Positions 37,510-58,125 of a DNA stretch of 64,000 nt are shown piece after piece (the first letter of the stretch is position 1; every line of letters begins with the position of its first letter). A program made the position numbers and the translations under genes. The notes below the pieces were generated by a model. That model saw only the letters and a list, made by a program, of their open reading frames with translations. It ran no database searches and had not been told where the DNA came from. The DNA is from [Archangium] primigenium (GTDB taxonomy: Bacteria > Myxococcota > Myxococcia > Myxococcales > Myxococcaceae). Where the stretch lies: contig NZ_JADWYI010000001.1 in assembly GCF_016904885.1 (NCBI RefSeq), positions 7,049,224 to 7,113,223 of the forward strand, written 5' to 3'.

Positions 37510-37613
37510 GGGTATTGAATCCTCCGGAAACCGCGTGACGGCCCAGCATACTCCCCGGACCCTGTAAAGGCGGGCGCGGTATACTCCAGGCCCCGCGCCG
37601 ATCCAACCCTTGG

Positions 37614-38360: not shown

Positions 38361-38361
38361 C

Positions 38362-39296: not shown

Positions 39297-39409
39297 TGCC
39301 GCGAACTCCCTCCCTCAAGGACTCCACTACCCGAGCGCCATGGGCAGGGAGGCGGAGGACGTATTGCCGTATTCGCCCAGGTTGAGCCAGCACTTCTCAC
39401 CACCCCGAG

Positions 39410-40465: not shown

Positions 40466-40566
40466 CGCGGCGGCATCCTTCCATGGACCCGGCCCGGCCC
40501 GGGGGTAGAATAGGGGGCGGACCTGGGGCGTTGCCGCCCCCGGGGGATTTGATCCCCATTGGCGCG

Positions 40567-40595
40567 TTGACTCACACGTCCCGAGCGGCTAGGGT
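40567..40595 (+). promoter_or_regulatory. Sigma-70-like promoter for rpmF (TTGACT-17-TAGGGT)
   Basis: Hexamers at 40567-72 and 40590-95, upstream of the plus-strand rpmF. Confidence 0.4.
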
Positions 40596-40677
40596 CCGCC
40601 GCCTTCCAAGCTTTTACCGGTCGGATCTGGTGAGAACATCTCCGGAAGCCCGGACCGTGACGATATAGAGGTGAGCC

Positions 40678-40866
40678 GTGGGTGTTCCCAAGAAGCGTAC
40701 GTCCAAGATGCGTCGTGACCGCCGCCGGGCGGCCAACAACAACCTGCGGAGCGCCGTGCAGGTGATCAAGTGCAGCAACTGCAACGAGCCGGCGCTTCCG
40801 CACCGCGCCTGCAGCGCCTGCGGCTTCTACAAGGGCCGCGAGACGGTCCCCGCCGCCCAGGGCTAG
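40678..40866 (+). CDS. rpmF: 50S ribosomal protein L32
   Basis: MGVPKKRTSKMRRDRRRA... with C-terminal Cys cluster. Plus strand, opposite to the flanking yceD and plsX. Confidence 0.85.
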   Translation: MGVPKKRTSKMRRDRRRAANNNLRSAVQVIKCSNCNEPALPHRACSACGFYKGRETVPAAQG

Positions 40867-40896
40867 TCCCCGGGCTCCAGCGCTCGCTGGAAGGTC

Positions 40897-40935
40897 AAAA
40901 GGCCGCTCCCTCGATGAAGAGGGGCGGCCTTTTCG
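40897..40935. terminator. Bidirectional intrinsic terminator between convergent rpmF and yceD
   Basis: AAAAGGCCGCTCCCTC-loop-GAGGGGCGGCCTTTT. A-run and T-run flank a GC-rich stem. Confidence 0.55.
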
Positions 40936-40996
40936 TTCGTGGCGTGGGCCCCGCGGCGCCTCCCCCTATAAAAGGAGGAGGCGGCGATGGGGGGCC

Positions 40997-41584
40997 TCAG
41001 CTCTGGATCTTGAGCTTCTTGAGCTGCCGGGCCAGGGGTGAATCCTCGCTCTTCGCCTCGCAGGCACACGCCTTCTCGTTGAGGTTCTGGCCGCACTGGG
41101 CGCACAGGCCCTTGCAGTCCTCGCGACACAGGGCGTTCATGGGCAGCGCCAGGATCGCCTGCTCGCGCACGATGGGCTCCAGGTCGATGACCTTGCCGTC
41201 GAAGACCTCCTCGTCCGTGTCATTGATGGAGAAGGAGCCACCCGACTCTCCATGGCCCCGGTCCTTCTCCTCCACCTCGTCCTCGTCCAGCACGTCCTCG
41301 CCTCGGGCGAGCGACTGGGGCACCAGGTTGAGCGTGAAGGACACGGGCAGCGTCAGCGTCGCGTCGGTGAGACAGCGCTTGCACTGCGTGTCCACGCGCT
41401 CGGTGAACTGGGCCTTGAGCAGCACGCCCCCGCTCACCTTGCGCAGGTCGGCGGAGACCGCCAGGGGCTCGGTGGCCTGGAAGCCCGAGCCCTCGAGCGC
41501 GGCGCGGAGCTGCTCCAGGCTCAGCGACTCCTTGAGCTGAAGCCCCTGGTCCTTAATCTCTTCAATCTTTACGCGCATCGCCAC
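40997..41584 (-). CDS. yceD: YceD/DUF177 family protein (large ribosomal RNA/L32 operon protein)
   Basis: 195 aa, C-terminal CxxC...CxxC. Confidence 0.75.
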   Translation of the reverse strand: MAMRVKIEEIKDQGLQLKESLSLEQLRAALEGSGFQATEPLAVSADLRKVSGGVLLKAQFTERVDTQCKRCLTDATLTLPVSFTLNLVPQSLARGEDVLDEDEVEEKDRGHGESGGSFSINDTDEEVFDGKVIDLEPIVREQAILALPMNALCREDCKGLCAQCGQNLNEKACACEAKSEDSPLARQLKKLKIQS

Positions 41585-43186: not shown

Positions 43187-43204
43187 TTGTCACGAAGGCG
43201 TCAC
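43187..43204 (+). promoter_or_regulatory. Pho-box-like direct repeat (TTGTCAC-4-GCGTCAC)
   Basis: Two 7-bp repeats with 11-bp periodicity, 70 bp upstream of the first OmpR-type regulator. Confidence 0.45.
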
Positions 43205-43276
43205 ATCCTCTTCATTCAGCCGACACGGGGGCTCTGTTAGTGCAATCGGCGTGAGCACGGCAAGCCGGGAGGAGAC

Positions 43277-43957
43277 ATGGCACGCATCCTGATCATCGAG
43301 GACGAGCAGGATCTGGCCGGACTGGTGGAGTACAACCTGCGCGCCGCGGGCTTCGAGGCGGAGGCGGTGGGCTCGGGCGCGAGCGGTCTGGCCCGCGCCC
43401 GCGCGAATCCGCCGGACCTGTTGCTGCTGGACCTGATGTTGCCGGACCTGGCGGGCAGCGAGGTGCTGCGCCTGTTCAAGGGCGACGCGGACTTGCGCAA
43501 GGTGCCGGTCATCATCGTGAGCGCCAAGGGCCAGGAGTCCGATCGCATCCAGGGCCTGGAGCTGGGCGCGGACGACTACGTGGTGAAGCCCTTCTCGGTG
43601 CGCGAGCTGCTGCTCCGGGTCAAGGCCGTGCTGCGGCGCGCGGACGCCGAGGAGGGTGAGAGCGCCCAGCTGTCCGCCGGGGACATCCAACTGGACACCA
43701 CGCGCCACCAGGTCCGGGCCCGGGGCCAGGAGGTGGCCCTCACGGCGCTCGAGTTCCGGCTGCTGCGCACGTTGATGGAGCGCACCGAGCGGGTGCAGAC
43801 CCGCGAGGTCCTGCTCTCGGACGTGTGGGGCATCCAGGCGGAGATCCACACCCGCACGGTGGACACGCACATCAAGCGCCTGCGCGAGAAGCTCGGCCCC
43901 GCGGGCGACATCATCGAGACGGTGCGCGGCGTGGGCTACAAGCTCACCCCGCCCTGA
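43277..43957 (+). CDS. OmpR/PhoB-family response regulator
   Basis: Receiver plus winged-helix domains. Confidence 0.85.
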   Translation: MARILIIEDEQDLAGLVEYNLRAAGFEAEAVGSGASGLARARANPPDLLLLDLMLPDLAGSEVLRLFKGDADLRKVPVIIVSAKGQESDRIQGLELGADDYVVKPFSVRELLLRVKAVLRRADAEEGESAQLSAGDIQLDTTRHQVRARGQEVALTALEFRLLRTLMERTERVQTREVLLSDVWGIQAEIHTRTVDTHIKRLREKLGPAGDIIETVRGVGYKLTPP

Positions 43958-43960
43958 TCC

Positions 43961-45322
43961 ATGCCCCCTCGCCCCCTGCTGCTCGCGCTGCTGGCTCCCG
44001 CTGGCGTGGCGCTCGTGGTCTTCCTGCTGCTGGGCTGGAACATGGACGCCGTCTATGTCTCGCTCTCCACCCTGCTCGGCTCCGGGCTGACGTTGATGGC
44101 GGCGCGGGGTCTCATCCAGCGCCGCCTGACCGGGCTCACGCGCACGGCGCTCACCCGCCCCGAGAGCACCTCCCCGTCTCCCCCGGCCGCCGATGACGAG
44201 GAGCTCGAGGAGCTGACACTGGTGCGGCGCACCCTCGACGCGCTGCACCAGCGGCACTTCACCCGCGACGTGGGCCTGCTGCAGGAGGCGCGCACGCTCA
44301 CCGCCGTCCTCGACGGCATGGCCGAGGGCATCTGGGTGACGGACGTGGAGGGCAACGTGCTGCGCCACAACGACGCGCTGCGCGGCATGCTGATGCCCGC
44401 GGGGGACATCGTCGGCCAGCGCCCGCTCACGCTGCTGCGCCACGACTCGCTCAACGAGGCCGTGAGCCGGGCCTGCCAGGAAGGCGTGTCCACCCGACTG
44501 GAGCTGACACTGGACGACGTGCTGTCGCGCACGCTCGCCATCCGGGTGACGCCCCTGGGCGGGGACCTGCCCGGCAGCGCCGCCGTCTTCCACGACGTCA
44601 CCGAGCTGCGCCACCTGGAGAAGGTGCGCAAGGACTTCGTCGCCAACGTCTCGCACGAGCTGCGCACCCCCATCACCGCCATCCGCGGCTACGCGGAGAC
44701 GCTCCAGTCCGGCGCCCTCGCCGACCCCCAGGTCGCCGCCAAGATGGTCGACATCATCCACCGCCAGTCCGAGCGGCTCTCGGAGCTCGTCGAGGATCTG
44801 CTCGAACTGTCACGCCTGGAGTCACGCGAAGTGAAGCTCCAGGTGCGGGACGTGCCGCTCGCGCAAGCGGCCGCCCGCGCGGCCGAGACCGTCCGGCACA
44901 AGGCCCAGGGCAAACGCATTTCCCTGGAATTGGACGTTCCCCCGGAGCTCGTGGCCCAGGGAGACGAGCGAGGCCTGGAACAGGTGCTGCTCAACCTGTT
45001 GGACAACGCGGTGAAGTACACGCCCGAGGGCGGACGGGTGCGGGTGACGGGGGGCCTGGAAGAGGGTCGGTGCGTGGTGCACGTGCGGGACAGCGGCGTG
45101 GGCATCGAGCCGCGGCACCTCACGCGCATCTTCGAGCGCTTCTACCGGGTGGACAAAGGCCGCAGCCGGGACATGGGGGGCACGGGGCTGGGACTGTCCA
45201 TCGTCAAGCACCTGCTGGGCGCCATGGGCGGCGAGGTCCGGGTGGAGAGCCAACCGAACGAGGGCTCCACCTTCACGATTTTACTGCGGGTGGCGGTGCC
45301 CTCTGCTGCATCCGCGGGTTAG
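43961..45322 (+). CDS. PhoR-like sensor histidine kinase
   Basis: TM helices, PAS, HisKA (SHELRTP), HATPase_c. Confidence 0.85.
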   Translation: MPPRPLLLALLAPAGVALVVFLLLGWNMDAVYVSLSTLLGSGLTLMAARGLIQRRLTGLTRTALTRPESTSPSPPAADDEELEELTLVRRTLDALHQRHFTRDVGLLQEARTLTAVLDGMAEGIWVTDVEGNVLRHNDALRGMLMPAGDIVGQRPLTLLRHDSLNEAVSRACQEGVSTRLELTLDDVLSRTLAIRVTPLGGDLPGSAAVFHDVTELRHLEKVRKDFVANVSHELRTPITAIRGYAETLQSGALADPQVAAKMVDIIHRQSERLSELVEDLLELSRLESREVKLQVRDVPLAQAAARAAETVRHKAQGKRISLELDVPPELVAQGDERGLEQVLLNLLDNAVKYTPEGGRVRVTGGLEEGRCVVHVRDSGVGIEPRHLTRIFERFYRVDKGRSRDMGGTGLGLSIVKHLLGAMGGEVRVESQPNEGSTFTILLRVAVPSAASAG

Positions 45323-45334
45323 GATGCGCCATCC

Positions 45335-46279
45335 ATGCGGGTCGCAATCCTCGCCGACATTCACGGCAACCTCCCGGCCTGCGAGGCCGTCCTGGAGGAC
45401 ATCGCCCGGGTAGCGCCCGATTACATCGTCGCCGCGGGCGACCTCGCGCTGCGGGGCGCGCATCCTCGCGAGACGGTGGAGCTGCTCTTCGATCGCTGTC
45501 ACGCCCTCATCATGGGCAACACCGACTGCTACCTCGCCGGCAACTACCTGGGGGGCGCCTACCGGGAGCGCGACCACTGGAAGACGGAGCTGCTCCAGTG
45601 GTCGAGGGATCAGCTCGGGGAGGCCTGGCTCAAGCGCCTGGGCTCCATGCCCTTCTCGGTGCGCTACAGCCCGCGCCGGGGGCAGGACCTGTTCGTCTGC
45701 CACGCCAACCCGCGCAACCTCGAGGACTCGCTCGATCCCACGCTGGATGAGAACACCGTGCGCCGCTACTTCCAGAACCTGGATGCGGCGGCGGTGGCGT
45801 TCGGCCACCTGCACTTCCCCTACCGCCGCCGCGTGGGCCGCCTGCTCATCGCCGACGTGGCGAGCGCCGGCATTCCGCGGGATGGCGATCTGCGTCCGGC
45901 CTACGGCGTCTTCACCTTCACGCCCCGGGGCTGGCGCGTGCAGATCCGCCGGGTGCGCTACCCGGTGCGCAAGGCCACCCAGGCCCTCACCGCGCGCCGC
46001 GTCCCCGGTGGACCGCTGCTCATCCACAAGCTCGTCGAGGCGCGCTATCGCCACCACAAGGCGCTAATGGAGGCCGCGCGTCGGCACTCGGGGCTGCCGC
46101 CGCCCGGGCCCGTGCTGCGCCCGCCGCCCGGCTCCAACATCCCCCACCGGCCCACGCCGCTGGAACTGCCCGCGCTGGACCCCGCGGCCCTGCGCTCGGC
46201 CGATGCCGAGGAGGGCGCGCCCCTGCCCATCGACGAGGAGCCGCTGCCGCTCGCCGGGGCACACGACCTGGACGGCTGA
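45335..46279 (+). CDS. Calcineurin-like metallophosphoesterase with Pro-rich C-terminus
   Basis: DIHGN...GD...GNTD motifs. Confidence 0.7.
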   Translation: MRVAILADIHGNLPACEAVLEDIARVAPDYIVAAGDLALRGAHPRETVELLFDRCHALIMGNTDCYLAGNYLGGAYRERDHWKTELLQWSRDQLGEAWLKRLGSMPFSVRYSPRRGQDLFVCHANPRNLEDSLDPTLDENTVRRYFQNLDAAAVAFGHLHFPYRRRVGRLLIADVASAGIPRDGDLRPAYGVFTFTPRGWRVQIRRVRYPVRKATQALTARRVPGGPLLIHKLVEARYRHHKALMEAARRHSGLPPPGPVLRPPPGSNIPHRPTPLELPALDPAALRSADAEEGAPLPIDEEPLPLAGAHDLDG

Positions 46280-46290
46280 GGTCCGGTCGA

Positions 46291-46307
46291 TGTCACGCAG
46301 TTGTCGC
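46291..46307 (+). promoter_or_regulatory. Pho-box-like direct repeat (TGTCAC-5-TGTCGC)
   Basis: Upstream of the second OmpR-type regulator. Confidence 0.45.
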
Positions 46308-46354
46308 CTGGGTGCCACGGGTCCGCGAACGTCGCGGCACACAGTGCGCGCGCC

Positions 46355-47044
46355 ATGCCCCACATTCTCATTGTCGACGATGAGCGGGATCTCGCCGAGC
46401 TCATCGACTTCAACCTGCGCGCCGTCGGCTTCTCCACGCGCATCGCCGCCACCGGGGATGCCGCGCTGGTGGCCGCCCGCGAGCAGCGCGCCGACATCAT
46501 CCTGCTGGACGTGATGCTGCCGGACATGTCCGGCGTGGAGGTCTGCCGCCAGCTGCGCGCCACGCCCTCCACGCGGGACGTGCCCATCGTCATGCTCACG
46601 GCCAAGAGCGAGGAAGGCGACCGGGTGCGGGGCTTCGAGGTGGGGGCCGACGACTACGTCACCAAGCCCTTCAGCGTCCGGGAGCTCGTGCTGCGGCTCA
46701 AGGCCATCCTGCGGCGCGGCAGCACCCCCCAGGAGGCCGGGAGCACCCTCACGCTCGGCCCCCTGTCACTCGACACCACGGCCCACCGCTTCCTGGTGGA
46801 GGGCCGCGAGGTGGTGCTCACCGCGCTGGAGTTCCGGCTGCTCGAGCACCTGCTGTCGCGGGTGGGCCGGGTGCAGTCCCGGGAGCTGCTCCTCGAACAG
46901 GTGTGGGGCCTGTCCAGCCACCTGGAGACGCGCACCATCGACACGCACATCATGCGCCTGCGCGAGAAGCTCGGCCCGGCGCGCGCCTACCTGGAGACGG
47001 TCCGGGGCGTGGGCTACCGCATCGTCGAGCCCGGAGCGGCGTGA
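46355..47044 (+). CDS. phoB: PhoB/PhoP-like OmpR-family response regulator (orphan, adjacent to pst)
   Basis: Start MPHILIVDDERDL, winged-helix C-terminus. Confidence 0.8.
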   Translation: MPHILIVDDERDLAELIDFNLRAVGFSTRIAATGDAALVAAREQRADIILLDVMLPDMSGVEVCRQLRATPSTRDVPIVMLTAKSEEGDRVRGFEVGADDYVTKPFSVRELVLRLKAILRRGSTPQEAGSTLTLGPLSLDTTAHRFLVEGREVVLTALEFRLLEHLLSRVGRVQSRELLLEQVWGLSSHLETRTIDTHIMRLREKLGPARAYLETVRGVGYRIVEPGAA

Positions 47045-47108
47045 GGCGCGTGACGCATTTGTCACGGCGAGTCCCCGCAACGGCCACGCGAGTCACGTAA
47101 AGCCCCCC

Positions 47109-47960
47109 GTGGATTCCCACTCCAAGGAAACACCTCCCATGAAGACGCTCATCGCCTCGCTCGCCACGGTGCTGCTGCTCCTCCTGCCGGGCGCCGCGCG
47201 CGCGGGTACGGTCACCGTGAAGGGCTCGGACACGCTGGTCATCCTCGGGCAGCGCTGGGCCGAGGAGTTCATGAAGAAGAACGCCACCGTCAAGCTGCAG
47301 GTGACGGGGGGCGGCTCGGGCGTGGGCCTGGCGGCGCTCGTCAACGGCACCACGGAGATCGCCATGTCCAGCCGGCCCATCAAGGACGCGGAGAACGCCC
47401 AGCTGCGCGCGCGCCACAAGGCCAACGCCACGCAGCTCGCCGTGGCCAAGGACGGCGTCACCTTCTACGTGAGCGAGTCCAACCCGCTCGGCGCGCTCAC
47501 CGAGCAGCAGCTGCGCGACATCTACCTGGGCGACGTGACGAACTGGAAGCAGGTGGGCGGCCCGGACGCGCCCATCGTCGTCTACTCGCGCGAGAACTCC
47601 TCGGGCACCTACGTGTTCGTGAAGGACCACGTGCTCAAGGGCGAGGACTACACCGCGAGCGCCCAGACGCTGCCGGGCACCGCCGCGGTGGTCAACGCGG
47701 TGGCCAAGGAGAAGAACGGCATCGGCTATGGCGGCGCCGCCTACGCCAAGGGCGTCAAGGAGCTCAAGGTGCTCCAGGGCAAGGAGGCCATCGCCCCGAG
47801 CGCGGAGAACATCAAGAGCGGCAAGTACCCGCTCTCGCGCGAGCTGTACTTCTACCTGCGCGCCGCGCCCACGGGTGATGCCAAGGCCTTCCTCGACTAC
47901 GTCCTGTCGCCCGAGGGCCAGGCGCTCGCCACCCAGGTGGGCTACTTCCCGGTGAAGTAA
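47109..47960 (+). CDS. pstS: Phosphate ABC transporter substrate-binding protein
   Basis: Signal peptide and PBP fold sequence. Confidence 0.9.
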   Translation: MDSHSKETPPMKTLIASLATVLLLLLPGAARAGTVTVKGSDTLVILGQRWAEEFMKKNATVKLQVTGGGSGVGLAALVNGTTEIAMSSRPIKDAENAQLRARHKANATQLAVAKDGVTFYVSESNPLGALTEQQLRDIYLGDVTNWKQVGGPDAPIVVYSRENSSGTYVFVKDHVLKGEDYTASAQTLPGTAAVVNAVAKEKNGIGYGGAAYAKGVKELKVLQGKEAIAPSAENIKSGKYPLSRELYFYLRAAPTGDAKAFLDYVLSPEGQALATQVGYFPVK

Positions 47961-47970
47961 GGCGTCCAGG

Positions 47971-47987
47971 CGTCACGCGATTGTCAC
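47971..47987 (+). promoter_or_regulatory. Pho-box-like direct repeat (CGTCAC-5-TGTCAC) between pstS and pstC
   Basis: 11-bp periodicity. Confidence 0.45.
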
Positions 47988-48005
47988 ACGGGTCCCGAGG
48001 CGAAG

Positions 48006-49022
48006 ATGGATAGACAGGTCAGCATGCAGGGTCAGGGATTCGTGGGACCGGCGGCGGTGGCGCCGAGACTCTCCTCGGCGGCCCGGCGCAGGCAGCTGCG
48101 CGAGAAGGCCATCGCCGGGGTGATCACGGCCATGGCCTTCACGGGCATCGCGGCGCTGGTGCTCATCCTCGTCTTCGTGGCCCGGGAGGCGCTCACGCTC
48201 TTCCTGGACGCCGAGGCCCGCCACGAGGCGAGCCCGTCGAAGATGTTCCTGCCGCAGGTGGTGCGCGCGGGCAAGCCCACCGCCTTCGTGTGGCAGCCGG
48301 TGTCCTCCGTGCCCAAGGTGAGCATGATTCCGCTCTTCATCGGCACGCTCAAGACGACGATGGTGTCCATGCTGGTGGCGGTGCCGCTGGGCGTGGCGGG
48401 GGCGCTGTTCGCGGCCGAGTTCGCGCCCCGGCGCCTGCGCGAGGTGCTCAAGCCCACCATCGAGATGCTCGCCGGCATCCCCTCGGTGGTGCTCGGCTTC
48501 GTGGCGCTCATGGTGTTCGCCAGCTTCCTGCAGGACACGCTCGGGCTGGGCTCGCGGCTCAACGCCCTGGTGGCGGGGCTGGGCCTGTCGCTCGCCATCG
48601 TGCCCGTCATCTTCACCGTGTCCGAGGACGCGCTCACGGCGGTGCCGCGCAGCTACCGCGAGGCGTCGCTGGCGCTCGGCGCCACGCCCTGGGAGACGGC
48701 CTGGAAGGTGGTGCTGCCCGCGGCCGCCCCGGGCATCCTCGCCGCGTGCGTGCTGGGCTTCGGCCGGGCCATCGGCGAGACGATGATCGTCCTGATGGCC
48801 TCGGGCAACGCGGCCATCGTGTCCGCGTCCCTCACGGACTCGGTGCGCACGCTGTCGGCCACCATCGCCGCGGAGATGGGCGAGGTGGTGTCGGGCAGCC
48901 CCCACTACGCCCTGCTCTTCTTCATCGGCGTGGAGCTCTTCTTCTTCACCTTCCTCATCAACATGGTGGCCAGTACGTGGACCCGGCGGGTCCTCAAGCG
49001 GCTGTCGGGAGCGGGCGCATGA
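48006..49022 (+). CDS. pstC: Phosphate ABC transporter permease PstC
   Basis: 6-TM permease, EAA-like loop. Confidence 0.9.
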   Translation: MDRQVSMQGQGFVGPAAVAPRLSSAARRRQLREKAIAGVITAMAFTGIAALVLILVFVAREALTLFLDAEARHEASPSKMFLPQVVRAGKPTAFVWQPVSSVPKVSMIPLFIGTLKTTMVSMLVAVPLGVAGALFAAEFAPRRLREVLKPTIEMLAGIPSVVLGFVALMVFASFLQDTLGLGSRLNALVAGLGLSLAIVPVIFTVSEDALTAVPRSYREASLALGATPWETAWKVVLPAAAPGILAACVLGFGRAIGETMIVLMASGNAAIVSASLTDSVRTLSATIAAEMGEVVSGSPHYALLFFIGVELFFFTFLINMVASTWTRRVLKRLSGAGA

Positions 49023-49930
49023 GCCCCGCCTGGCGCCGGGGCGTGGGTGGAGCGCTCACGTCCCTCACCGGCCTCGCCGCGCTGCTCATCGTGGCGCTGC
49101 TGGCCGTCATCATCCTGGACATCGTGCGCGGCGGCCTCGGGATGATCTCCTGGCGCTTCCTCACCGAGCCGCCCTCGGACGGCATGATGGCCGGCGGCAT
49201 CTTCCCCGCCCTCTACGGCACGGCGGCGCTCACGCTGCTCATGACGCTCGCGGTGATGCCGGTGGGCGTGCTCACGGCGGTGTACCTGCACGAGTACGCA
49301 CCGCCGGGCTCGCTGCTGGCGCGCGCGGTGCGCGTGGCCATCATCAACCTGGCGGGCGTGCCCTCCATCGTCTTCGGCCTGTTCGGCGTGGGCTTCTTCA
49401 TCCACTTCGTGGGCGGCAACCTCGATCGGCTGCTCGGCTACCAGGAGCTGCACTGGGCCCAGCCCGGCATCCTCTGGGCGGCGCTCACGCTGGCGGTGCT
49501 CACCCTGCCCGTGGTCATCGTGTCCACGGAGGAGGCGCTGCGCGCGGTGCCCCTGGAGCAGCGCACGGCGAGCCTCGCCCTCGGGGCCACGCAGAGCCAG
49601 ACGCTCGCGCGGGTCGTGCTGCCGGGCGCGCTGCCGGGCATCCTCACGGGGGCGGTGCTGGCGGTGTCGCGCGGCGCGGGCGAGGTGGCCCCCATCCTCT
49701 TCACCGGCGCGGCCTACTTCCTGCCGGAACTGCCCCAGGCGCTCAACTCGCAGTTCATGCACCTGGGCTACCACTCCTACGTGCTGGCCACCCAGTCGCC
49801 CGACGTGGAGGCCACCCGGCCCCTGCTCTACGGCACCGTGCTGGTGCTGCTCGTGCTGACCTTCGCCCTCAACCTCGTCGCGGTGCTCATCCGCGCCCGC
49901 ACCCGCCGGCGCGCCGCCGCGGCCCACTGA
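49019..49930 (+). CDS. pstA: Phosphate ABC transporter permease PstA
   Basis: Start MSPAWRRGV. ATGA overlap with pstC. Confidence 0.9.
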   Translation: MSPAWRRGVGGALTSLTGLAALLIVALLAVIILDIVRGGLGMISWRFLTEPPSDGMMAGGIFPALYGTAALTLLMTLAVMPVGVLTAVYLHEYAPPGSLLARAVRVAIINLAGVPSIVFGLFGVGFFIHFVGGNLDRLLGYQELHWAQPGILWAALTLAVLTLPVVIVSTEEALRAVPLEQRTASLALGATQSQTLARVVLPGALPGILTGAVLAVSRGAGEVAPILFTGAAYFLPELPQALNSQFMHLGYHSYVLATQSPDVEATRPLLYGTVLVLLVLTFALNLVAVLIRARTRRRAAAAH

Positions 49931-49942
49931 GTCCCGTCCGCC

Positions 49943-50722
49943 ATGCCCTCGTCCCCGTCGTCTCCCGCGCGCATCAAGATGGAGTCCCGCGCGCTCACCC
50001 TGCGCTATGGCAACAAGGTGGCCGTCAAGTCGGTGAACCTCACCCTGCCCGAGCACCAGGTGACGGCGCTCATCGGCCCCTCGGGCTGCGGCAAGTCCAC
50101 CTTCCTGCGCTCGCTCAACCGGATGAACGATCTCATCCCCGGCACCAGCCACGAGGGCACCGTGCTCCTGGAGGGCACGAGCATCCATGACCGCAACGTG
50201 GACGTGGTGGACCTGCGCCGCCGCGTGGGCATGGTCTTCCAGAAGTCCAACCCGTTCCCCAAGAGCATCTTCGAGAACGTGGCCTATGGCCTGCGCGTGG
50301 GCGGGATGAAGGACAAGGCGGAGCTGGCCGCGCGGGTGGAGAAGTCCCTCCGGGGCGCGGCGCTCTGGGACGAGGTGAAGGATCGCCTCGGGGACAGCGC
50401 CCTGGGCCTGTCCGGCGGCCAGCAGCAGCGCCTGTGCATCGCGCGCGCCCTGGCCATCGAGCCCGAGGTGCTGCTCATGGACGAGCCCGCGAGCGCGCTG
50501 GATCCCATCGCCACCGCGAAGATCGAGGAGCTCATCTACGAGCTCAAGGCGCGCTACACCATCGCCATCGTCACCCACAACATGCAGCAGGCGGCGCGGG
50601 TGAGCGAGCGCACCGCTTTCTTCTACATGGGAGAGCTGGTGGAATGCGGGCCCACGGAGAGCATCTTCACCAACCCGCGTGAGAAGCGCACCGAGGACTA
50701 CGTCACCGGGAAGTTCGGCTGA
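49943..50722 (+). CDS. pstB: Phosphate ABC transporter ATP-binding protein
   Basis: Walker [18 protein letters not shown] signature. Confidence 0.92.
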
Positions 50723-50742
50723 GCGGGAAAAGAGGCGGGCAC

Positions 50743-51435
50743 ATGCCGTCAGTGCATACGGACAAGGCGTTCGAGGCGGATCTGCGCGACTTGCGCGAGA
50801 AGCTCCTGGCCATGGGCGCCAAGGTGGAGGCGCTCATCGCCGACAGCATGCGCGCGCTCACCGAGCGGGACACGTCGCTGGCCGAGGAGGTCGCCCAGGG
50901 GGACAAGGAGGTCAACCGCCTGGAGGTGGACATCGACGAGGCATGTCGCCGCATCCTCGCGCTGCGCCAGCCGGCCGCGAGCGACCTGCGCCTCATCACC
51001 ACGGCCCTGAAGATCGTCACCGACCTGGAGCGCATCGGGGACCTGGCGGTGAACATCGCCGAGCGGGCCAAGGATCTCAACGCCGCCCCGCCGCTCAAGC
51101 CCTACGTGGACACGCCCCGGCTCGCCGAGCTCGCCCTGCAGCAGGTGAAGAAGGCCCTGGACGCCTTCGTCTCGGCGAACACGACCAAGGCCGAGGAGGT
51201 GCTCAAGGCGGACGATCACCTGGATGCCCTCTACCTGAAGATCTTCAACGAGCTGCTCAGCTACATGATGGAGGACTCGAAGAACATCCGCCGCGCCACG
51301 GCGTTGATGTTCATCGCCAAGCACCTCGAGCGCATCGGGGATCACGCCACCAACGTGGCGGAGATGGTCATCTACATGGTGCGCGGCACGGACATCCGCC
51401 ACCCGCGCAGCCGCAACCTGCCCTCGGGCACGTGA
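50743..51435 (+). CDS. phoU: Phosphate-specific transport system accessory protein PhoU
   Basis: Two PhoU repeats. Confidence 0.9.
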   Translation: MPSVHTDKAFEADLRDLREKLLAMGAKVEALIADSMRALTERDTSLAEEVAQGDKEVNRLEVDIDEACRRILALRQPAASDLRLITTALKIVTDLERIGDLAVNIAERAKDLNAAPPLKPYVDTPRLAELALQQVKKALDAFVSANTTKAEEVLKADDHLDALYLKIFNELLSYMMEDSKNIRRATALMFIAKHLERIGDHATNVAEMVIYMVRGTDIRHPRSRNLPSGT

Positions 51436-51471
51436 GCGCGGGGCGGGTGGCCCCCGCATGTATTTCCCCGT

Positions 51472-51500
51472 CGTCACGGAGGCTTCACGAAGCCTTCATC
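51472..51500 (+). promoter_or_regulatory. Triple Pho-box-like repeat (CGTCACG-4-CTTCACG-4-CTTCATC)
   Basis: Three 7-mers in 11-bp register, about 70 bp upstream of the glycosyltransferase. Confidence 0.5.
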
Positions 51501-51567
51501 TGGGCCCCGTAGCGTCCCTGGACAGGTCGCGCCTCTCCCGCGATCTCCTCCGTCCAGGAGAACGTCC

Positions 51568-52806
51568 GTGCTCACGCTCCACACGCTCAGCCTCGCCCTC
51601 CTCGCCGCGGCCACCTTCGGCACCCTCGCCCTCTGCGTGCAGCTCGTCTGCGTGCTGCGCCACGCCTGGGACGACGCCCCTCCCCTGCCCTCCCCTCCCG
51701 AGCCGCGCCGCTCGGGCATCTCCATCCTCAAGCCCCTGTGCGGCGTGGACGATGACCTGGAGGCCAACCTCGAGTGCTTCGCCACGCTCGGCTACCCCGT
51801 CTACGAGGTCATCCTCGGCGTGAAGGACACGCGGGATCCCGCCTATCCCGTGGCGCTGGCCGCGGTGGCACGCTGGCCGGACGTGATGCGACTGGAGATG
51901 CAGCACGGCGAGCCGGGCCTCAACCCCAAGGTGAACCAGCTCATCACCCTGGCGGCCGCGGCGCGCTACGACGTGCTGCTCATCAGCGACTCCAACACGC
52001 GCGTGGGACCGGGCTACCTGGAGGAGCTCTCCCGCGCTTTCGAGGATCCCTCGGTGGGCTGCGTGTCGCACCCGGTGAGCGGCGTGGGCGAGGCGTCGCT
52101 CGGCTCGTTGATGGACAACCTGTACCTGTGCACCACGGCGGCCGCGGGGCAGATCGCCGCCAAGCGCATCGCGGGCCAGGATCTCGTGGTGGGCAAGTCC
52201 ATGGCGCTGCGCCGCGAGGTGGTGGAGGGCCTGGACGGCTTCTACGCCGTGCGCAACGTGCTCGCGGAGGACTTCGTCATCGGCCAGTGGGTGACGCGGC
52301 GCATGGGCCTGAGGGCCGTGGTGGCGCGCGCCCCCGTCTACAACGTGTCCCAGAAGAAGAGCGTCCAGACGTTCTTCCAGCGCTACGTGCGCTGGAGCAT
52401 CATCCATCACACCTGCATCCCCACGCCGCTCTACCTGGCCCAGTCCACGCTCAACCCCCTGCCCTGGGCGCTGCTGGGCGCGGTGCTCTCCCCCTCGGCC
52501 TGGACGCTCGGGCTGGCGGGCACCGTGGCGGGGGTGAAGGTCCTGCATGACGTGCTCGTCTTTCGCGCCATGCGGCCGGGCCTGAAGACGCCCTGGATGA
52601 CGCTGCCCGCGGTGCTGCTCAAGGACGCGCTGCTCTTCGTGGCGTGGGCCCATGGACTCGGGGCCCGCTCGGTCAACTGGCGGGGCCGCTCGCTGCGGGT
52701 GCGCGCCGGCTCGAGGCTCGTGGCGCCCGCGGCCCCGGTGCACGTCCTGCCCCGGCCCGCGGTCCACGTCGAGACCTCGCGCGCCGAGCAGCTGCTGGCG
52801 GGCTGA
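51568..52806 (+). CDS. GT2/GT21-like (ceramide glucosyltransferase / Pgt-like) membrane glycosyltransferase
   Basis: ISILKPLCGVD and D..D/QxxRW-like (QRYVRWS) motifs. N-terminal and C-terminal TM helices. Confidence 0.6.
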   Translation: MLTLHTLSLALLAAATFGTLALCVQLVCVLRHAWDDAPPLPSPPEPRRSGISILKPLCGVDDDLEANLECFATLGYPVYEVILGVKDTRDPAYPVALAAVARWPDVMRLEMQHGEPGLNPKVNQLITLAAAARYDVLLISDSNTRVGPGYLEELSRAFEDPSVGCVSHPVSGVGEASLGSLMDNLYLCTTAAAGQIAAKRIAGQDLVVGKSMALRREVVEGLDGFYAVRNVLAEDFVIGQWVTRRMGLRAVVARAPVYNVSQKKSVQTFFQRYVRWSIIHHTCIPTPLYLAQSTLNPLPWALLGAVLSPSAWTLGLAGTVAGVKVLHDVLVFRAMRPGLKTPWMTLPAVLLKDALLFVAWAHGLGARSVNWRGRSLRVRAGSRLVAPAAPVHVLPRPAVHVETSRAEQLLAG

Positions 52807-52809
52807 GCG

Positions 52810-52826
52810 CTTCACCGCGAAGTCAC
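52810..52826 (+). promoter_or_regulatory. Pho-box-like direct repeat (CTTCAC-5-AGTCAC)
   Basis: Upstream of the metallophosphoesterase. Confidence 0.4.
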
Positions 52827-52892
52827 GGGGCGATCCCGGAAGCTTCACCCACGGGACATGAGGGTGTTTCAGGCCCGGGGTACTTCCCTCCC

Positions 52893-53726
52893 ATGCACCT
52901 GCGAACCCTGGCGCACCTGTCGGATCTGCACCTGGACCTGTCCCCCAGCAGCGACGCCACCGCCCAGGCGCTGGTGGAGAGCCTGCTCACCGGCCGCGTG
53001 GACCATGTGGTGGTGACGGGAGACCTGACCCACCAGGGCGGCCGACGCGAATACCAGCGCTTCCGCGAGCTCTTCGCGCCCCTGCTCGACGCGGGACGGC
53101 TCACCTTCGTCCCCGGCAACCACGACCGCACGGGCGAGGACGCGGGCCGCGCATGGATGAACGGCCAGAAGGTCCGGGTGGAGGCGCATGAAGGGCTGTA
53201 CCTGGTGTGCGTGGACTCCACGGGACCGCACAACCGCGACTACTTCGCCTGCCATGGGGTGCTGACCCCCGGCGTGCTGGACGCCGTGGACAGCGCCCTG
53301 AGCGCCGCGCCCCTGGGCGCGCTGACGGCCGTGCTGCTGCACCACCACGTCCTGCCCCTGCCCGAGGAGAGCTTCCCGGAGCGTCTGGCGACGCGCCTGG
53401 GCTGGCCCCACGCCGCGGAGCTCGCCCTGGGCGCGGAGCTCGTCCAGCGCATCCAGGGCCGGTGCGATCTCATCCTCCACGGCCACCGGCACGTGCCGCG
53501 CGAGATCGACCTGGGGCGGCCCCGGGGCCGCGCCCTGCGCATCTACAATTCGGGCAGCTCCGTCGAGCTGGGCCGCTTCCGCGTCTTCTCCCATGCCGGG
53601 GGTCGGCTCATGGGCGAGCCCCTCTGGCGCCAGGCCCGCGTGCAGCCCCGGCCCCACAGCGCCGGGGCCAATGTCCTGCCCGCGTTGCAGTACCTCGCCG
53701 CGCAGCTGTCGGGCGCCCTGCTCTAG
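52893..53726 (+). CDS. Metallophosphoesterase (PlcP-like candidate phospholipase C)
   Basis: SDLHLD...GDLTHQG...GNHD...HHH...GHRH motifs. Start MHLRTL. Confidence 0.6.
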   Translation: MHLRTLAHLSDLHLDLSPSSDATAQALVESLLTGRVDHVVVTGDLTHQGGRREYQRFRELFAPLLDAGRLTFVPGNHDRTGEDAGRAWMNGQKVRVEAHEGLYLVCVDSTGPHNRDYFACHGVLTPGVLDAVDSALSAAPLGALTAVLLHHHVLPLPEESFPERLATRLGWPHAAELALGAELVQRIQGRCDLILHGHRHVPREIDLGRPRGRALRIYNSGSSVELGRFRVFSHAGGRLMGEPLWRQARVQPRPHSAGANVLPALQYLAAQLSGALL

Positions 53727-53834
53727 AAGCGACTGCTTGCTCCCCTGCTGTCCGGCCCCACGAGCGGGCACGGGAGAATGCCCCGCGGTGTCCGCGGGGT
53801 TTTCCCACTGGCACTGGGAGGACATTTGGAACCG

Positions 53835-54203
53835 ATGGTTTCCGCCGGGGACGCACGCAAGGTACTGGTCGTCGATGACGACGCGGATTGGCGCGAGTTC
53901 CTCCGGCTGTGCCTGGAGGAGCTGGGCTACGAGGCCATCGAGGCGGCCAATGGCCAGGAGGCCCTCGATTCGCTGGCGCGACAGCGCTACGGCGTGATGC
54001 TCCTGGACCTGAACATGCCGGGAATGAATGGCCTCGAGGTCTTGGAGCGGATGCCGCGCGGGGATCCTCCCCGCGTGGTCCTGCTGACGGGCGCGGCGGT
54101 GCAGGACGTGGGCGGGGCCCTCCGCTCGGGACCGCACTACTACCTGCCCAAGGGCGCGAGCCGGGACCAGTTGTCGCTGCTGCTCCAGTCCCTGGACACC
54201 TGA
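53835..54203 (+). CDS. Single-domain response regulator
   Basis: VLVVDDD...DLNMPGMNG... Confidence 0.7.
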   Translation: MVSAGDARKVLVVDDDADWREFLRLCLEELGYEAIEAANGQEALDSLARQRYGVMLLDLNMPGMNGLEVLERMPRGDPPRVVLLTGAAVQDVGGALRSGPHYYLPKGASRDQLSLLLQSLDT

Positions 54204-54413: not shown

Positions 54414-54487
54414 GCGCGATTAGCTCAGCTGGATAGAGCGTTGGCCTCCGAAGCCAAAGGCCGCTGGTTCGACTCCAGCATCGCGCA
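54414..54487 (+). tRNA. tRNA-Arg (anticodon CCG)
   Basis: Cloverleaf. Acceptor GCGCGAT/ATCGCGC, D-arm GCTC-AGCTGGATA-GAGC, anticodon loop CTCCGAA, T-arm GCTGG-TTCGACT-CCAGC. No encoded CCA. Confidence 0.85.
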
Positions 54488-54539
54488 CACAGTCAACCCG
54501 GCGGAATCTCTCGGGAAATCACGAGGGATTCCGCCGGGG

Positions 54540-55006
54540 ATGACATTCCGGCACTCCCCCATCAGTCAGTTGCAAGTCCGCGTCGTGCGACCGCTCCAGG
54601 CCTGACGAGGGCTGCGGGTTGCTCCACCACCCCGCCTGCGCCCGCCCGGGCGTACTGGTACGGCGGTCCGGCGGGTCTGAACGTCGGCGGTGACGTCCTC
54701 CCGCCGTCTGTCACTGGCGCACCGCCCCTGCTCGACCCCGACTCCGGCCAGGTCGGGCTGCTCCCCGGCGGCCCGCGGCAGGACAGGGTCTACGTCACCG
54801 ACCGGTACGAGATGGCGGAGGTGGTCGCCGCCCTGCACCCGGACAAGGGCTGCGTCTACCGCGTCCTGCCCGAAGCGCCCCTGGAGGACGCCGACAACCC
54901 GGGCGTCTTCTGGCTCTGCACGCGGGCGCGGGTTGTGTCCGTGCACCCGCTCGATGACGCCACCGAACTGCGCATCCTCAAGGGGCTCGCGGGGGAGGCG
55001 TCATGA
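54540..55006 (+). pseudogene. Arr-like (rifampin ADP-ribosyltransferase family) gene, frameshifted
   Basis: Frame from ATG 54540 gives MTFRHSPISQ (compare Arr MVKDWIPISH) and stops at 54605. Homology (YWYGG...LNVGGDVL...VYRVLPEAPLEDADNP...RVVSV) continues in another frame through to 55006. The Arr comparison is from memory. Confidence 0.35.
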
Positions 55007-55713
55007 GCTGCCCCCTGCCGAAGAAGCCGGTGGTGGACGTGCGCACGTACACCGTCTACCCGGACGCGCACCTCCATGGAGCCCACGGGCTGGAGCTCAA
55101 GCAGCTCCGCGCGGACGCCGAGCGCCTGGGGGACCAAGTGGACGCCACGGCCCGCGAGCTCGCGGACGCGCGCGAGGCCCTGCGGGAGGCCGAGCAGAAG
55201 CTGGTGCGGGTGGAGCAGGAGCGGGACACCGCCCGGGCGCAGCTGGACGCCATCCGCAAGGAGTTCCTCCTGCGCGACATGCCCGCGGAGGACGGGCCCG
55301 ACGCCCTGTCCTCCTTGAGGGAGTTGCTCTCGGCGTACCGCCGCCAGTTGCTCAACCTCCAGCAGGTGGGCGTGGAGCGGGACACCGCCCGGGCGGACAG
55401 CGCGCTGCTGCTCGCGCGCGTCCAGCGCGAGCGGGGCATGCTGGAGCTGCTCTTCCACTGCGGCCGCGCGGGCCACTCGGGCACGCGCTTGAAGGACGCC
55501 CTGGAGACGGTGGCGCGCTTCCTGGCCTCGGCGCCGGAGGTGTCCACGTCCAGCGGTGCCGAGCTGCTCGCCGCCGTGCGCCAGGTGATGGAGGTGGTGG
55601 ACCGGCCCACCACGCCCGAGTTGCAGGACGGACAGTTGAGCGAGCTGCACGGCGCCGTCGAGGGCCTTCGTGGCGCGCTGGCTCCGCGCGAGCAGGAGGT
55701 GGCCCGTGGCTAA
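55003..55713 (+). CDS. Hypothetical coiled-coil protein
   Basis: 236 aa, heptad-rich. ATGA overlap with the Arr-like ORF end. Confidence 0.5.
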   Translation: MSCPLPKKPVVDVRTYTVYPDAHLHGAHGLELKQLRADAERLGDQVDATARELADAREALREAEQKLVRVEQERDTARAQLDAIRKEFLLRDMPAEDGPDALSSLRELLSAYRRQLLNLQQVGVERDTARADSALLLARVQRERGMLELLFHCGRAGHSGTRLKDALETVARFLASAPEVSTSSGAELLAAVRQVMEVVDRPTTPELQDGQLSELHGAVEGLRGALAPREQEVARG

Positions 55714-56110
55714 GGCCGCCCCGAAGAAGCAGCCAGGGCCCGAGCGGGTCCCTTCCCTTCATGAATTCCAGCAGGAGGCACGCGCCAACATCGCCGAGCG
55801 CACGCCCAAGGACTTGAGCGTCGAGGAGGTGCAGTCCATTCGCGCCTTCAAGGCATCGGGCTCCACCGCCGTTGGGATTGCCCAGCAATTCCGCATCGAC
55901 CGGCGACAGGTGTCGGCGATCGTCAAGTTCCGCGTCCGCGCGGATGTGCCTCGTCCGTTCGAGACGAGCGAGCAGCGCTCCTGGCGAGAGTCAAAGCACC
56001 GGGAGAACGAGCACGACGCGAAGAAGCGGCTGGAAGCGCTCTCCGCCAAGAAGGCCGGCTCGAAGAGGAAGACGAAGCCCGGGGATGACACGTCGGAAGG
56101 TGCGTCATGA
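55706..56110 (+). CDS. Small basic protein with HTH-like segment
   Basis: GTG start. SVEEVQSIRAFKASGSTAVGIAQQFRIDRRQVSAIVK resembles an HTH. Lys-rich tail. Confidence 0.35.
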   Translation: MAKAAPKKQPGPERVPSLHEFQQEARANIAERTPKDLSVEEVQSIRAFKASGSTAVGIAQQFRIDRRQVSAIVKFRVRADVPRPFETSEQRSWRESKHRENEHDAKKRLEALSAKKAGSKRKTKPGDDTSEGAS

Positions 56111-58125
56111 GCACCCTCCGGCGCATCGCGCTCGTGGGGTGCGGCAAGGCCAAGGCATCCCAGGCCACCAAGGCGCGCCAGCTCTACACGGGCCCGCTCT
56201 TCCGCGCCTCCCTGGCCGCCGCCGAAGCCGAGTTCGGCGGTGACGTCTGGATCCTCAGTGCCAAGCACGGCCTCGTGGACCTGGACGAGGTGCTCGAGCC
56301 CTACGAGGCCACCCTGGACGGTGCCTCGCCGAAGTGCAGCTCCAACTGGGGGCTCGACGTCATCCGCAACCTCCGGGACGACGAGCACAACACCCCGGCC
56401 CACCTCACCGTGTACGCGGGTCAGGCGTACGCGCAGGCGCTCCGGCACCACCTCCCCGAGGGGTGGGTGCTCGACGAGCCCCTGGCGGGCCTCGGCCAGG
56501 GCGAGCGCCTCGGCTGGCTCAAGCAGCGCCTCGCGCGGCTCACCGCCCCCACCACCCACTCCACCTCCTCCTTTCCGGCGGGCCCCCAGGGCGCCGCCAC
56601 CGAGCCCTCCATGTCCACGGCCACCCCGCGTCTCACCGCCGAGCAGCGCCAGCAGCACTTCACGAAGGCCCTGGAGGCCGAGCGCGAGCTCGCGGATGTC
56701 CCTCTGCTGCGCGAGCGCTTCCTCCAGGCCCTCGCGCAGCAGGAAGAGCGCCTGCGCCTGTTGCTCACCCGCTCCATGGCCGCGGCCACCACGGGGGAGA
56801 ATCCCGACGCGCCCCAGCAGCAGAGCCTGGCGCTGGAGGCGAGCGCGCCCAAGAAGCGCGGTCGCCCGCGGAAGGCCCCCGCCGCCCCGGTGGTCCAGGA
56901 GCAGCAGCCGGCCGCCGCGCCGAAGAAGCGGGGCCGCCCGCGCAAGGCGCCCGTCACCCCGGCGGAGACGGGAGAGAAGCGCCTGCCCCCGGCGGAATCC
57001 GCGCGCACGGTGAAGGTGGAGGCGCCTCCCGTGGAGCCCCCGGCGCCCGTGGCTGTCATGGAGGAGGACGCGGTGCCCGCCCCGGCGGTGCCGTGCTGCA
57101 CCTGCGGCGACTCGCTGGCGGACCACCCGAAGAAGCGCTGCACGGCCAGGCGCGAGGGCAAGCCCTGCCGGTGCAAGGCCTTCCAGCTCCACCGCGTGTG
57201 GGACTGGGAATTGTGCTGGGGAGAGCACTGCGGTGTCCGCGTCTTCTGGCTCTTCCACGCAAAGGACCCCTACAACGTTCGCCACGGTCCTCTCCGCGCG
57301 CAGAGCGGCACCCTCCTGCGCCACCACCTGCAGATGGATGTGGTGGTGGAGGCGCGCAAGACGGGTGTCTGGCCCGCGGACGATGAGCACGGCGTGCCGC
57401 AGCGCGTGCTGGAGACGGTGGCGCGCGTGCTCGCCGATCATCCCCATCAGGCGCCGAGCGCGGCGTCCACAGCCACGTCCGCGCCGAGCTCCGGCGCCCC
57501 GTTGCCCGCGCAGGCCGAGGTGGCGACCGCGACTGCCCCCGAGCGCACGGACCTGGGAGCGTGGCGGGTGGAGCTGCCCGAGCGCACTGGGAACGTGCGT
57601 GTCATCCGCCTCTGGCTGGTGAATGACACCACGGGCGAGCGCGTGTCGGCGATGTGGTGGAGCACCACGGGCGACCTCGAGCCCGGACACCGAATCTCCG
57701 GCCGTGCGGAGGGCGCGGAGTTGAGCGAGGAGCTCCGGTTGAGGGCATGGTGGGCAGAGCACCAGCCGTCCGTGGTGGAGCCGCTCGTCCAGTCCTGCCG
57801 GGCCGGCCAGGTCCCCGGGCTGTGCCTGTACCTCTCGGAGTACCCGGAAGAAGGCCCCAGCCGCTACGCCCTGTCCGAGGGATGGCAACTGGAGGCCAAG
57901 GTGGACGACAGCAAGGAGCGGCCGTGGTTCCGCTTCACCCTGCCCACCGAGCGCACGGAGATGCGCGAGACAACGGGCTACTTCCACCTGCAGGACGGGA
58001 AATTCGTGGTGGCAACGCCGGCCAAGGTGGACCCGGACGCCCACCTGTACCCCGAGCTCACGTACCGGATTGCCCAGGCCGAGGCGCTCATCCACTGCGG
58101 CTTCGTCGACGAGGCGAAGCCATGA
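56107..58125 (+). CDS. Large hypothetical protein: conserved N-terminal domain, 2x AT-hook (KKRGRPRKAP), Cys-rich segment
   Basis: 672 aa. ATGA overlaps at both ends. Confidence 0.5.
   Translation: MSTLRRIALVGCGKAKASQATKARQLYTGPLFRASLAAAEAEFGGDVWILSAKHGLVDLDEVLEPYEATLDGASPKCSSNWGLDVIRNLRDDEHNTPAHLTVYAGQAYAQALRHHLPEGWVLDEPLAGLGQGERLGWLKQRLARLTAPTTHSTSSFPAGPQGAATEPSMSTATPRLTAEQRQQHFTKALEAERELADVPLLRERFLQALAQQEERLRLLLTRSMAAATTGENPDAPQQQSLALEASAPKKRGRPRKAPAAPVVQEQQPAAAPKKRGRPRKAPVTPAETGEKRLPPAESARTVKVEAPPVEPPAPVAVMEEDAVPAPAVPCCTCGDSLADHPKKRCTARREGKPCRCKAFQLHRVWDWELCWGEHCGVRVFWLFHAKDPYNVRHGPLRAQSGTLLRHHLQMDVVVEARKTGVWPADDEHGVPQRVLETVARVLADHPHQAPSAASTATSAPSSGAPLPAQAEVATATAPERTDLGAWRVELPERTGNVRVIRLWLVNDTTGERVSAMWWSTTGDLEPGHRISGRAEGAELSEELRLRAWWAEHQPSVVEPLVQSCRAGQVPGLCLYLSEYPEEGPSRYALSEGWQLEAKVDDSKERPWFRFTLPTERTEMRETTGYFHLQDGKFVVATPAKVDPDAHLYPELTYRIAQAEALIHCGFVDEAKP

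Follow-up and report, generated by a model that had tools for sequence, protein, structure and literature searches.

In a 64-kb stretch of DNA from the myxobacterium [Archangium] primigenium (64,000 nucleotides [nt], about 70% G+C; hereafter the window), the phosphate transport genes pstSCAB-phoU are followed by genes for a lipid glycosyltransferase of family GT21 (here GT) and a metallophosphodiesterase (here MPE2). All genes of this Pho cluster (43277-54203) lie together on the plus strand, and direct repeats with an 11-nt period occupy several of its gaps. The repeats hold up as real, are conserved, and resemble PHO boxes. Since Pho-type repeats also precede the glycosyltransferase and the phosphodiesterase beside the transporter, myxobacteria probably make phosphorus-free glycolipids at low phosphate, and the locus is a probable new branch of the Pho regulon for glycolipid synthesis. 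It is likely that GT and MPE2 are under Pho control. That GT has a phosphorus-sparing glycolipid function is somewhat more likely than not, judging by family precedent and by its putative regulation. The model as a whole, in which the Pho regulon of Myxococcota has a conserved extension with GT and MPE2 under PHO-box-like arrays, is modestly favored.

Genes were called by third-codon-position G+C and by Pfam and NCBIfam scans, and the repeats were sought over the 64 kb, on both strands, with the strict pattern [GT]TCAC-N6-[GT]TCAC. Four pairs were found (starting at 43189, 47972, 51473, and 52811), all on the plus strand, all intergenic, and all within 43-53 kb, compared to an expectation of 0.385; none of 200 second-order Markov simulations reached four. 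Two of the sites were triples (43189-43215 and 51473-51499), and not one triple arose in the 200 simulations. An earlier note, made from the sequence alone, had described 11-bp-period direct repeats here, and these four pairs and two triples, each with at least two direct units at that period, bear it out. With a looser three-unit score, seven of the eight top sites in the window were Pho-cluster gaps on the coding strand. When center-to-center spacings from 5 to 24 nt were scanned, only 11 and 12 were enriched, and 6 of the 10 matches at spacing 12 came from an unrelated repeat region at 59.3 to 59.6 kb. That region includes a 93-bp tandem repeat (59370-59575; 2.2 copies, 97% identical) with GTCAC motifs 12 nt apart, which accounts for the second peak. 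Widening the motif to GTGAC was tried and dropped, the gains being mostly within coding sequence and palindromes.

PHO boxes are built of 11-nt direct repeat units, with the cores CTGTCAT in Escherichia coli and GTTCACC in Streptomyces (PMC4415409). The repeats in the window are likewise direct 11-nt units in variable numbers, as in the E. coli PhoB and Streptomyces PhoP boxes (PMC4415409), but their core is (G/T)TCAC. It resembles both known cores, in agreement with the Pho-box assignment of the earlier note. We found no description of a myxobacterial PHO box in the literature searched, the coverage of which was incomplete.

The individual arrays, all on the plus strand, differ in regularity. 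Upstream of RR1, the first of two PhoB-type response regulator genes, stand four phased 11-nt units, GTCAC/GTCAC/TTCAT/GACAC (43189-43226), with TAGTGC 11 nt further on. Upstream of the second, RR2, there is only a degenerate three-unit array, GTCAC/GTCGC/GCCAC (46292-46318; score, 13 of 15). The GTCAC-like repeats upstream of pstS (47061-47096) are irregularly spaced and fail the strict pattern. As the note had it, a repeat lies between pstS and pstC: this GTCAC-N6-GTCAC (47972-47987) is the most widely conserved site. The triple repeat upstream of GT, which had been placed at 51472-51500, reads GTCAC-N6-TTCAC-N6-TTCAT at 51473-51499 and was recognized both by the strict pattern and as a footprint across 18 sequences. 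For MPE2, the repeats reported at 52810-52826 correspond to TTCAC-N6-GTCAC at 52811-52826. By direct reading, the array runs on to 52870 as six units, TTCAC/GTCAC/ATCCC/TTCAC/GACAT/GTTTC, which start at 52811, 52822, 52833, 52844, 52855, and 52866, all in 11-nt phase. A sigma-54 interpretation of GCCATGGCCGTGTTTCAG, a conserved block in this gap, was rejected because the window itself does not keep its TGGC part; two more degenerate 11-nt units in phase fit the block better.

Conservation was examined in 18 related loci, 17 from a scan of species-representative genomes and 1 from Myxococcus stipitatus. The gene order RR2-pstSCAB-phoU-GT-(MPE2)-CheY was kept in every locus long enough. A relaxed form of the pair occurred 50 times in 638 kb (both strands counted), and 44 of the 50 were confined to the coding strand and to a handful of intergenic positions that recurred from locus to locus. 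These were pstS|pstC (14 pairs, plus 3 labeled differently by the script), phoU|GT (11), GT|MPE2 (10), and the region upstream of RR1 (6), with pairs at the homologous RR1-upstream position in L001, L012, and L017. The arrays in front of the pst genes and of the phoB/phoR homologues are thus kept in relatives, and the proposed link of a glycosyltransferase and a metallophosphoesterase to pst-phoU through such repeats is conserved across Myxococcota.

We weighed whether the repeats might be chance matches, or the sites of another OmpR-family regulator, rather than Pho operators. The degenerate array upstream of RR2 and the irregular one upstream of pstS would fit such an account. However, the repeats are strongly enriched, show a complete strand bias, and recur at homologous positions before pst genes and PhoB/PhoR homologues, all of which make this explanation extremely unlikely.

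The gaps upstream of GT and MPE2 have a promoter-like layout. Between phoU and GT, the order is a terminator-like hairpin directly 3' of phoU (51438-51457, plus strand), the triple repeat, 10 nt, the −10-like hexamer TAGCGT (51510-51515, plus strand), a leader containing a CGCG/CGCG stem, then AGGAG and the GTG start. In E. coli Pho promoters, the PHO box substitutes for the −35 element, with the −10 element about 10 bp downstream. The order from hairpin to hexamer is kept in 18 sequences; in their alignment, TA(G/A)CGT or a close variant fills a single column, with one or two arrays upstream of it. The distal TTCAC-N6-GTCAC of this gap is perfectly conserved in the Myxococcus clade, and two loci (L007 and L017) carry six consecutive phased units upstream of GT. 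The GT leader (51516-51567) is also conserved. The CGCG...CGCG stem that it carries, downstream of the −10-like hexamer and ahead of the ribosome-binding site, is invariant, and covariation is weak (term, −0.65); the stem may be an RNA structure or a protein-binding site.

In 11 of 13 loci, the GT-MPE2 gap opens with TTCACCGnnAnGTCACC, immediately after the stop codon of GT. Sequence around GTGTTTC and GTAC(A/T)T forms a second block conserved across the 13. A putative −10-like hexamer, TACTTC (52881-52886, plus strand), stands 10 nt past the last repeat unit and only 6 nt before the MPE2 ATG; the MPE2 mRNA may therefore be leaderless or nearly so. Downstream of MPE2, direct reading gives a hairpin, CCCCGCGG-TGT-CCGCGGGG, followed by TTTT (53781-53803, plus strand).

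GT (51568-52806, plus strand; 412 amino acids, GTG start) is a GT21 enzyme, as the earlier note had proposed: it matches Pfam PF13506 at 138.5 bits, with a curated cutoff of 21.7. Residues 37 to 288 match the solved ceramide glucosyltransferase UGCG (E = 1e-29), and in this alignment the UGCG catalytic motifs DSN, AED, and RxxRW fall on ISDSN, LAEDF, and RYVRW of GT. Residues 4 to 31 form a hydrophobic N-terminal membrane anchor. The closest homologue is that of Melittangium boletus (83% identity), followed by other Archangiaceae and Myxococcaceae. Among 1.8 billion representative proteins, 502 relatives were found at E ≤ 1e-30, many of them 35 to 50% identical and mostly unnamed. Membership in GT21 predicts a lipid acceptor and a uridine diphosphate (UDP)-sugar donor, without saying which lipid.

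The rhizobial GT21 enzyme Pgt makes glycosyl-diacylglycerols under phosphate deprivation, and its gene has a predicted Pho box (PMC8231724, PMC3972451); Pgt accepts diacylglycerol and also ceramide (PMC3972451). GT shares with Pgt of Mesorhizobium loti and Agrobacterium tumefaciens the GT21 family, the lipid acceptor expected of it, and a predicted Pho box (PMC3972451, PMC8231724). The earlier note had drawn the comparison with Pgt of Mesorhizobium. We built an unrooted neighbor-joining tree of the catalytic region, in which alphaproteobacterial GT21 proteins stand in for Pgt. The myxobacterial GTs formed a clade of their own, and the alphaproteobacterial (Pgt-like) clade, with 100% bootstrap, excluded them. 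GT is thus separate from the Pgt-like clade and is 23 to 28% identical to the GT21 stand-ins, which are not authentic Pgt.

GT also shares its catalytic domain, D/D/D/RxxRW motifs, and N-terminal membrane anchor with UGCG (30% identity) and HpnI (29%), but identity is only about 30%. HpnI (TIGR03472) is the single NCBIfam match of GT, at 222.6 bits. This match, together with the tree, in which the myxobacterial GT clade falls on the HpnI side, favors a role unrelated to phosphorus sparing. GT would then act on a hopanoid, a sterol, or another envelope lipid, or in development, and merely sit beside pst; MPE2 would be a Pho-regulated scavenging or cyclic-nucleotide phosphodiesterase, its nearest structures being cyclic-nucleotide and glycerophosphodiester diesterases. 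We rejected the HpnI assignment itself, since the score is below the cutoff of 310 and GT has no hpnJ/hpnK neighbors; true hpnI genes adjoin hpnJ and hpnK (e.g., in L024). Moreover, GT has its own conserved array and promoter-like layout, and this is also the case in Polyangium, away from pst. We regard an unrelated role as very improbable.

The likeness to UGCG raises another alternative, in which the pathway runs on sphingolipids. A sphingomyelinase-like MPE2 would strip phospho-inositol or phospho-ethanolamine from ceramide lipids, and a UGCG-like GT would make glycosylceramide. Myxococcus xanthus makes ceramide phospho-inositol (PMC9246714). In Caulobacter, the PhoB-dependent glycosyltransferases Sgt1 and Sgt2 make a glycosphingolipid (PMC6445935), and there, as proposed here, lipid glycosylation is limited to phosphate starvation in a ceramide-making bacterium (PMC6445935); the likeness is one of physiology. 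However, GT is no closer to UGCG than to HpnI, and sphingomyelinases rank under GpdQ and Rv0805 among the structural neighbors of MPE2. This version is improbable. If it were true, MPE2 would represent a new sphingophospholipid phosphodiesterase of bacteria, and under phosphate shortage a PhoB-controlled pathway would use the eukaryote-type ceramide glucosyltransferase family to remodel sphingolipids and not glycerolipids alone.

MPE2 (52893-53726, plus strand; 277 amino acids, with the ATG chosen 249 nt inside the longest open reading frame) was identified by Pfam and structure comparison as a cytoplasmic metallophosphodiesterase of the GpdQ/Rv0805/Lmo2642 type. Its closest homologue is again from Melittangium boletus (87% identity), then from other Archangiaceae and Myxococcaceae, and the metal-binding motifs DxH, GD, GNHD, HHH, and GHRH are invariant across 41 homologues. 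No signal sequence, transmembrane segment, or hydrophobic N terminus was found in the protein sequence. The C terminus forms a conserved amphipathic helix, both in the homologues and in the predicted model (mean predicted local distance difference test score [pLDDT], 85), and this helix is compatible with membrane association. The best structural neighbors of the model were Lmo2642 (24.0), the glycerophosphodiesterase GpdQ (22.3), and Rv0805 (21.8), with SMPDL3B (17.6), acid sphingomyelinase (16.2), and LpxH (11.9; rank 42) further down. By closest fold and weak sequence similarity, MPE2 is therefore a class III phosphodiesterase of the GpdQ type.

The earlier note had seen in MPE2 a PlcP-like metallophosphoesterase. 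PlcP is a tight family: its characterized members are 46 to 51% identical, and homologues are gathered at BLASTP E < 1e-40, with LpxH as the outgroup (PMC8528852, PMC4796936, PMC9239053). As presumed PlcP we used LpxH-like proteins encoded upstream of GT21 genes on plasmids of Gemmobacter, Pannonibacter, and Fuscovulum; these stand-ins belong to a large Rhodobacterales family annotated LpxH-like, of which the homologue search returned no member named PlcP. Against the presumed Gemmobacter PlcP, MPE2 gave E = 0.098, and MPE1, a second metallophosphoesterase of the cluster, gave E = 1.1. Profile-profile comparison of MPE2 with the presumed PlcP aligned the two at superfamily level only (probability, 95.8%; E = 7e-9), and none of the NCBIfam LpxH models matched. 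MPE2 thus has intact metal-binding motifs but neither family-level similarity to the presumed PlcP nor LpxH as its nearest family. By sequence, profile, and structure comparison, we therefore assign MPE2 to the GpdQ/Rv0805 type and not to PlcP.

MPE2 could still act on lipid head groups. In a pathway of the PlcP-Pgt kind with a non-orthologous enzyme, MPE2 would remove the head group of phosphatidylethanolamine or phosphatidylglycerol inside the cell, and GT would glycosylate the resulting diacylglycerol. Several observations favor this: MPE2 adjoins GT in the Archangiaceae-type loci, in Myxococcus stipitatus, and in other genomes; repeat arrays precede both genes; the cytoplasmic MPE2 keeps its active site intact and ends in an amphipathic helix that is conserved; and plcP followed by a glycosyltransferase gene is already a known arrangement (PMC4796936). 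However, MPE2 lies outside the PlcP/LpxH family, with soluble-substrate diesterases as its best structural neighbors; it is dispensable at the position next to GT in several Myxococcus genomes; and the neighbors that flank GT in Polyangium are another metallophosphoesterase and a GDPD protein. We consider such a pathway a tentative possibility. It is at least as likely that MPE2 recovers phosphorus from soluble diesters.

The known PlcP-Agt and PlcP-Pgt systems of Sinorhizobium, Phaeobacter, SAR11, Pseudomonas aeruginosa, and Methylosinus resemble the window in that a metallophosphoesterase gene and a lipid glycosyltransferase gene, both under Pho-box control (putative in the window), adjoin (PMC4796936, PMC8528852, PMC9239053), and the predicted outcome, glycolipid in place of phospholipid at low phosphate, is the same. 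They differ in the phosphoesterase, since the nearest relative of PlcP is LpxH, whereas MPE2 is of the GpdQ/Rv0805 type and not always present. Here the gene order is also reversed, the arrays are separate, and the pair is attached to pst-phoU. The claim that the gene pair has the same architecture as those systems consequently holds only loosely. In Alphaproteobacteria the LpxH-like gene comes first and overlaps or abuts the GT21 gene; here GT comes first, with an 86-bp gap, separate arrays, and MPE2 missing in five Myxococcus-type loci.

On the alphaproteobacterial plasmids, the GT21 gene, annotated ceramide glucosyltransferase, directly follows the LpxH-like metallophosphoesterase gene, and plcP followed by a glycosyltransferase gene is the arrangement described for marine bacteria (PMC4796936). 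In Gemmobacter (L021:4078-7255) and Fuscovulum (L025:3006-6232), four genes follow one another, for an LpxH-like metallophosphoesterase, a GT21 enzyme, a protein with a VTT/DedA domain, and a GT2 glycosyltransferase; Pannonibacter (L022) has the first two in common with them. The Gemmobacter and Fuscovulum cluster is probably a plasmid-borne plcP-pgt lipid-remodeling module.

Further support comes from another class: Polyangium jinanense (L028) has a GT21 protein only 38% identical to GT. Its gene is not beside pst; it is divergent, with a metallophosphoesterase gene and the gene of a GDPD glycerophosphodiesterase next to it and phoX 5 kb off. Upstream of it stand GTCAC, GACAC, and GTGAC (spacings of 12 and 11 nt), then 10 nt and TAGCGT, a layout similar to that of GT in the window. 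More GTCAC-type pairs surround this GT21/metallophosphoesterase/GDPD/PhoX cluster (L028:6970, 9292, and 14159), including a palindrome, GTCAC-N6-GTGAC, in front of phoX; their orientations partly disagree with the neighboring genes. In a Polyangia metagenome-assembled genome (L020), the MPE2 orthologue lies amid genes for ppk1, ppx, ppk2, PAP2, an OmpR-type regulator, and PhoU_div-PHO4, and a GT21 gene is 7 kb away. Just upstream of this orthologue (L020:6964-7900) lies a gene for an IS200-like Y1 transposase and, after it, some five copies of a GC-rich repeat (...CCGGCTTGAGCCGA...), an arrangement like that of repetitive extragenic palindromic (REP) elements with a REP-associated tyrosine transposase (RAYT).

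We infer regulator binding, induction at low phosphate, a glycolipid product, and a link between MPE2 and lipids, as follows. When phosphate is limiting, a PhoB-type regulator in its phosphorylated form (RR1 and/or RR2) would bind the head-to-tail 11-nt arrays with the core (G/T)TCAC. The arrays would stand in for the −35 element, with a −10-like hexamer about 10 nt downstream, and the bound regulator would thereby switch on its own operon, pst-phoU, and two further units, GT and MPE2. The membrane-anchored GT would use a UDP-sugar to glycosylate a lipid of the membrane, be it diacylglycerol or ceramide, and its product would be a phosphorus-free glycolipid that takes the place of a phospholipid. 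The cytoplasmic, binuclear MPE2 would cleave phosphodiesters and so recover phosphorus, its substrate being either the phospholipid head group or soluble products of phospholipid breakdown.

Several points weigh against a Pho-controlled glycolipid pathway that includes both enzymes. Clustering of Pho genes is no proof of a common pathway. GT is roughly equidistant (23 to 30% identity) from HpnI, UGCG, and the alphaproteobacterial Pgt-like clade, so that its acceptor, and even its phosphorus-sparing role, are extrapolations. Enzymes with the folds nearest that of MPE2 have soluble diesters and cyclic nucleotides as substrates. Between GT and the CheY-like gene, MPE2 is absent from five Myxococcus-type loci (L010, L011, and L013-L015), and the MPE2 orthologue of Polyangium sp. 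y55x31 has no phosphate-related neighbors. Two more distant GT homologues (L026 and L027; 53% and 39% identical) showed no pst neighborhood and no clear repeat array. Finally, in the literature searched, with incomplete coverage, we found no report of a myxobacterial glycolipid and no account of phosphate-driven lipid remodeling in myxobacteria.

Phospholipid replacement driven by phosphate is established in Proteobacteria. What the locus offers beyond that is a candidate myxobacterial PHO-box consensus ((G/T)TCAC, 11-nt period, 10 nt before the −10 hexamer), a previously uncharacterized GT21 subfamily tied to pst-phoU across Myxococcaceae and Archangiaceae, and a candidate non-PlcP phosphodiesterase. 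If the model is true, an unrelated branch of the superfamily can fill the phosphoesterase step of lipid remodeling, and new glycolipids or glycosphingolipids could emerge in predatory soil bacteria.

The remaining genes of the cluster all lie on the plus strand. RR1 (43277-43957; Pfam Response_reg and Trans_reg_C) has PhoB as its best NCBIfam model at 245 bits, below the cutoff of 296. The PhoR/PnpS-like histidine kinase that follows (43961-45322) scored 378 bits for PnpS and 308 bits for PhoR, both slightly under the cutoffs. Only 12 nt past the kinase gene begins MPE1 (45335-46279), a YfcE/Ap4A-hydrolase-like metallophosphoesterase with structure-library matches to PDB 3rqz (3e-12) and 3qfm (8e-9); it is syntenic among Archangiaceae-type loci and probably belongs to an autoregulated Pho operon. 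RR2 (46355-47044), assigned by Pfam and NCBIfam, is 53% identical to RR1, adjoins pst, and stands beside pst in all related loci that reach that far upstream. It is followed by pstS (47109-47960; PstS family, 236 bits, over the cutoff) and, from Pfam and NCBIfam matches, by pstC (48006-49022), pstA (49019-49930), pstB (49943-50722), and phoU (50743-51435). A CheY-like single-domain response regulator (53835-54203), recognized by domain scan and synteny, forms the conserved end of the cluster.

On the minus strand at 35932-41584 lie the housekeeping lipid-synthesis genes yceD, plsX, fabD, fabG, and fabF, which showed no connection to the Pho cluster. Beyond the CheY-like end of the syntenic cluster, a tRNA-Arg(CCG) gene (54414-54488) is followed by open reading frames without Pfam matches and by a 672-amino-acid DUF6884 protein, and this region (54414-58125) may be an integrated element.

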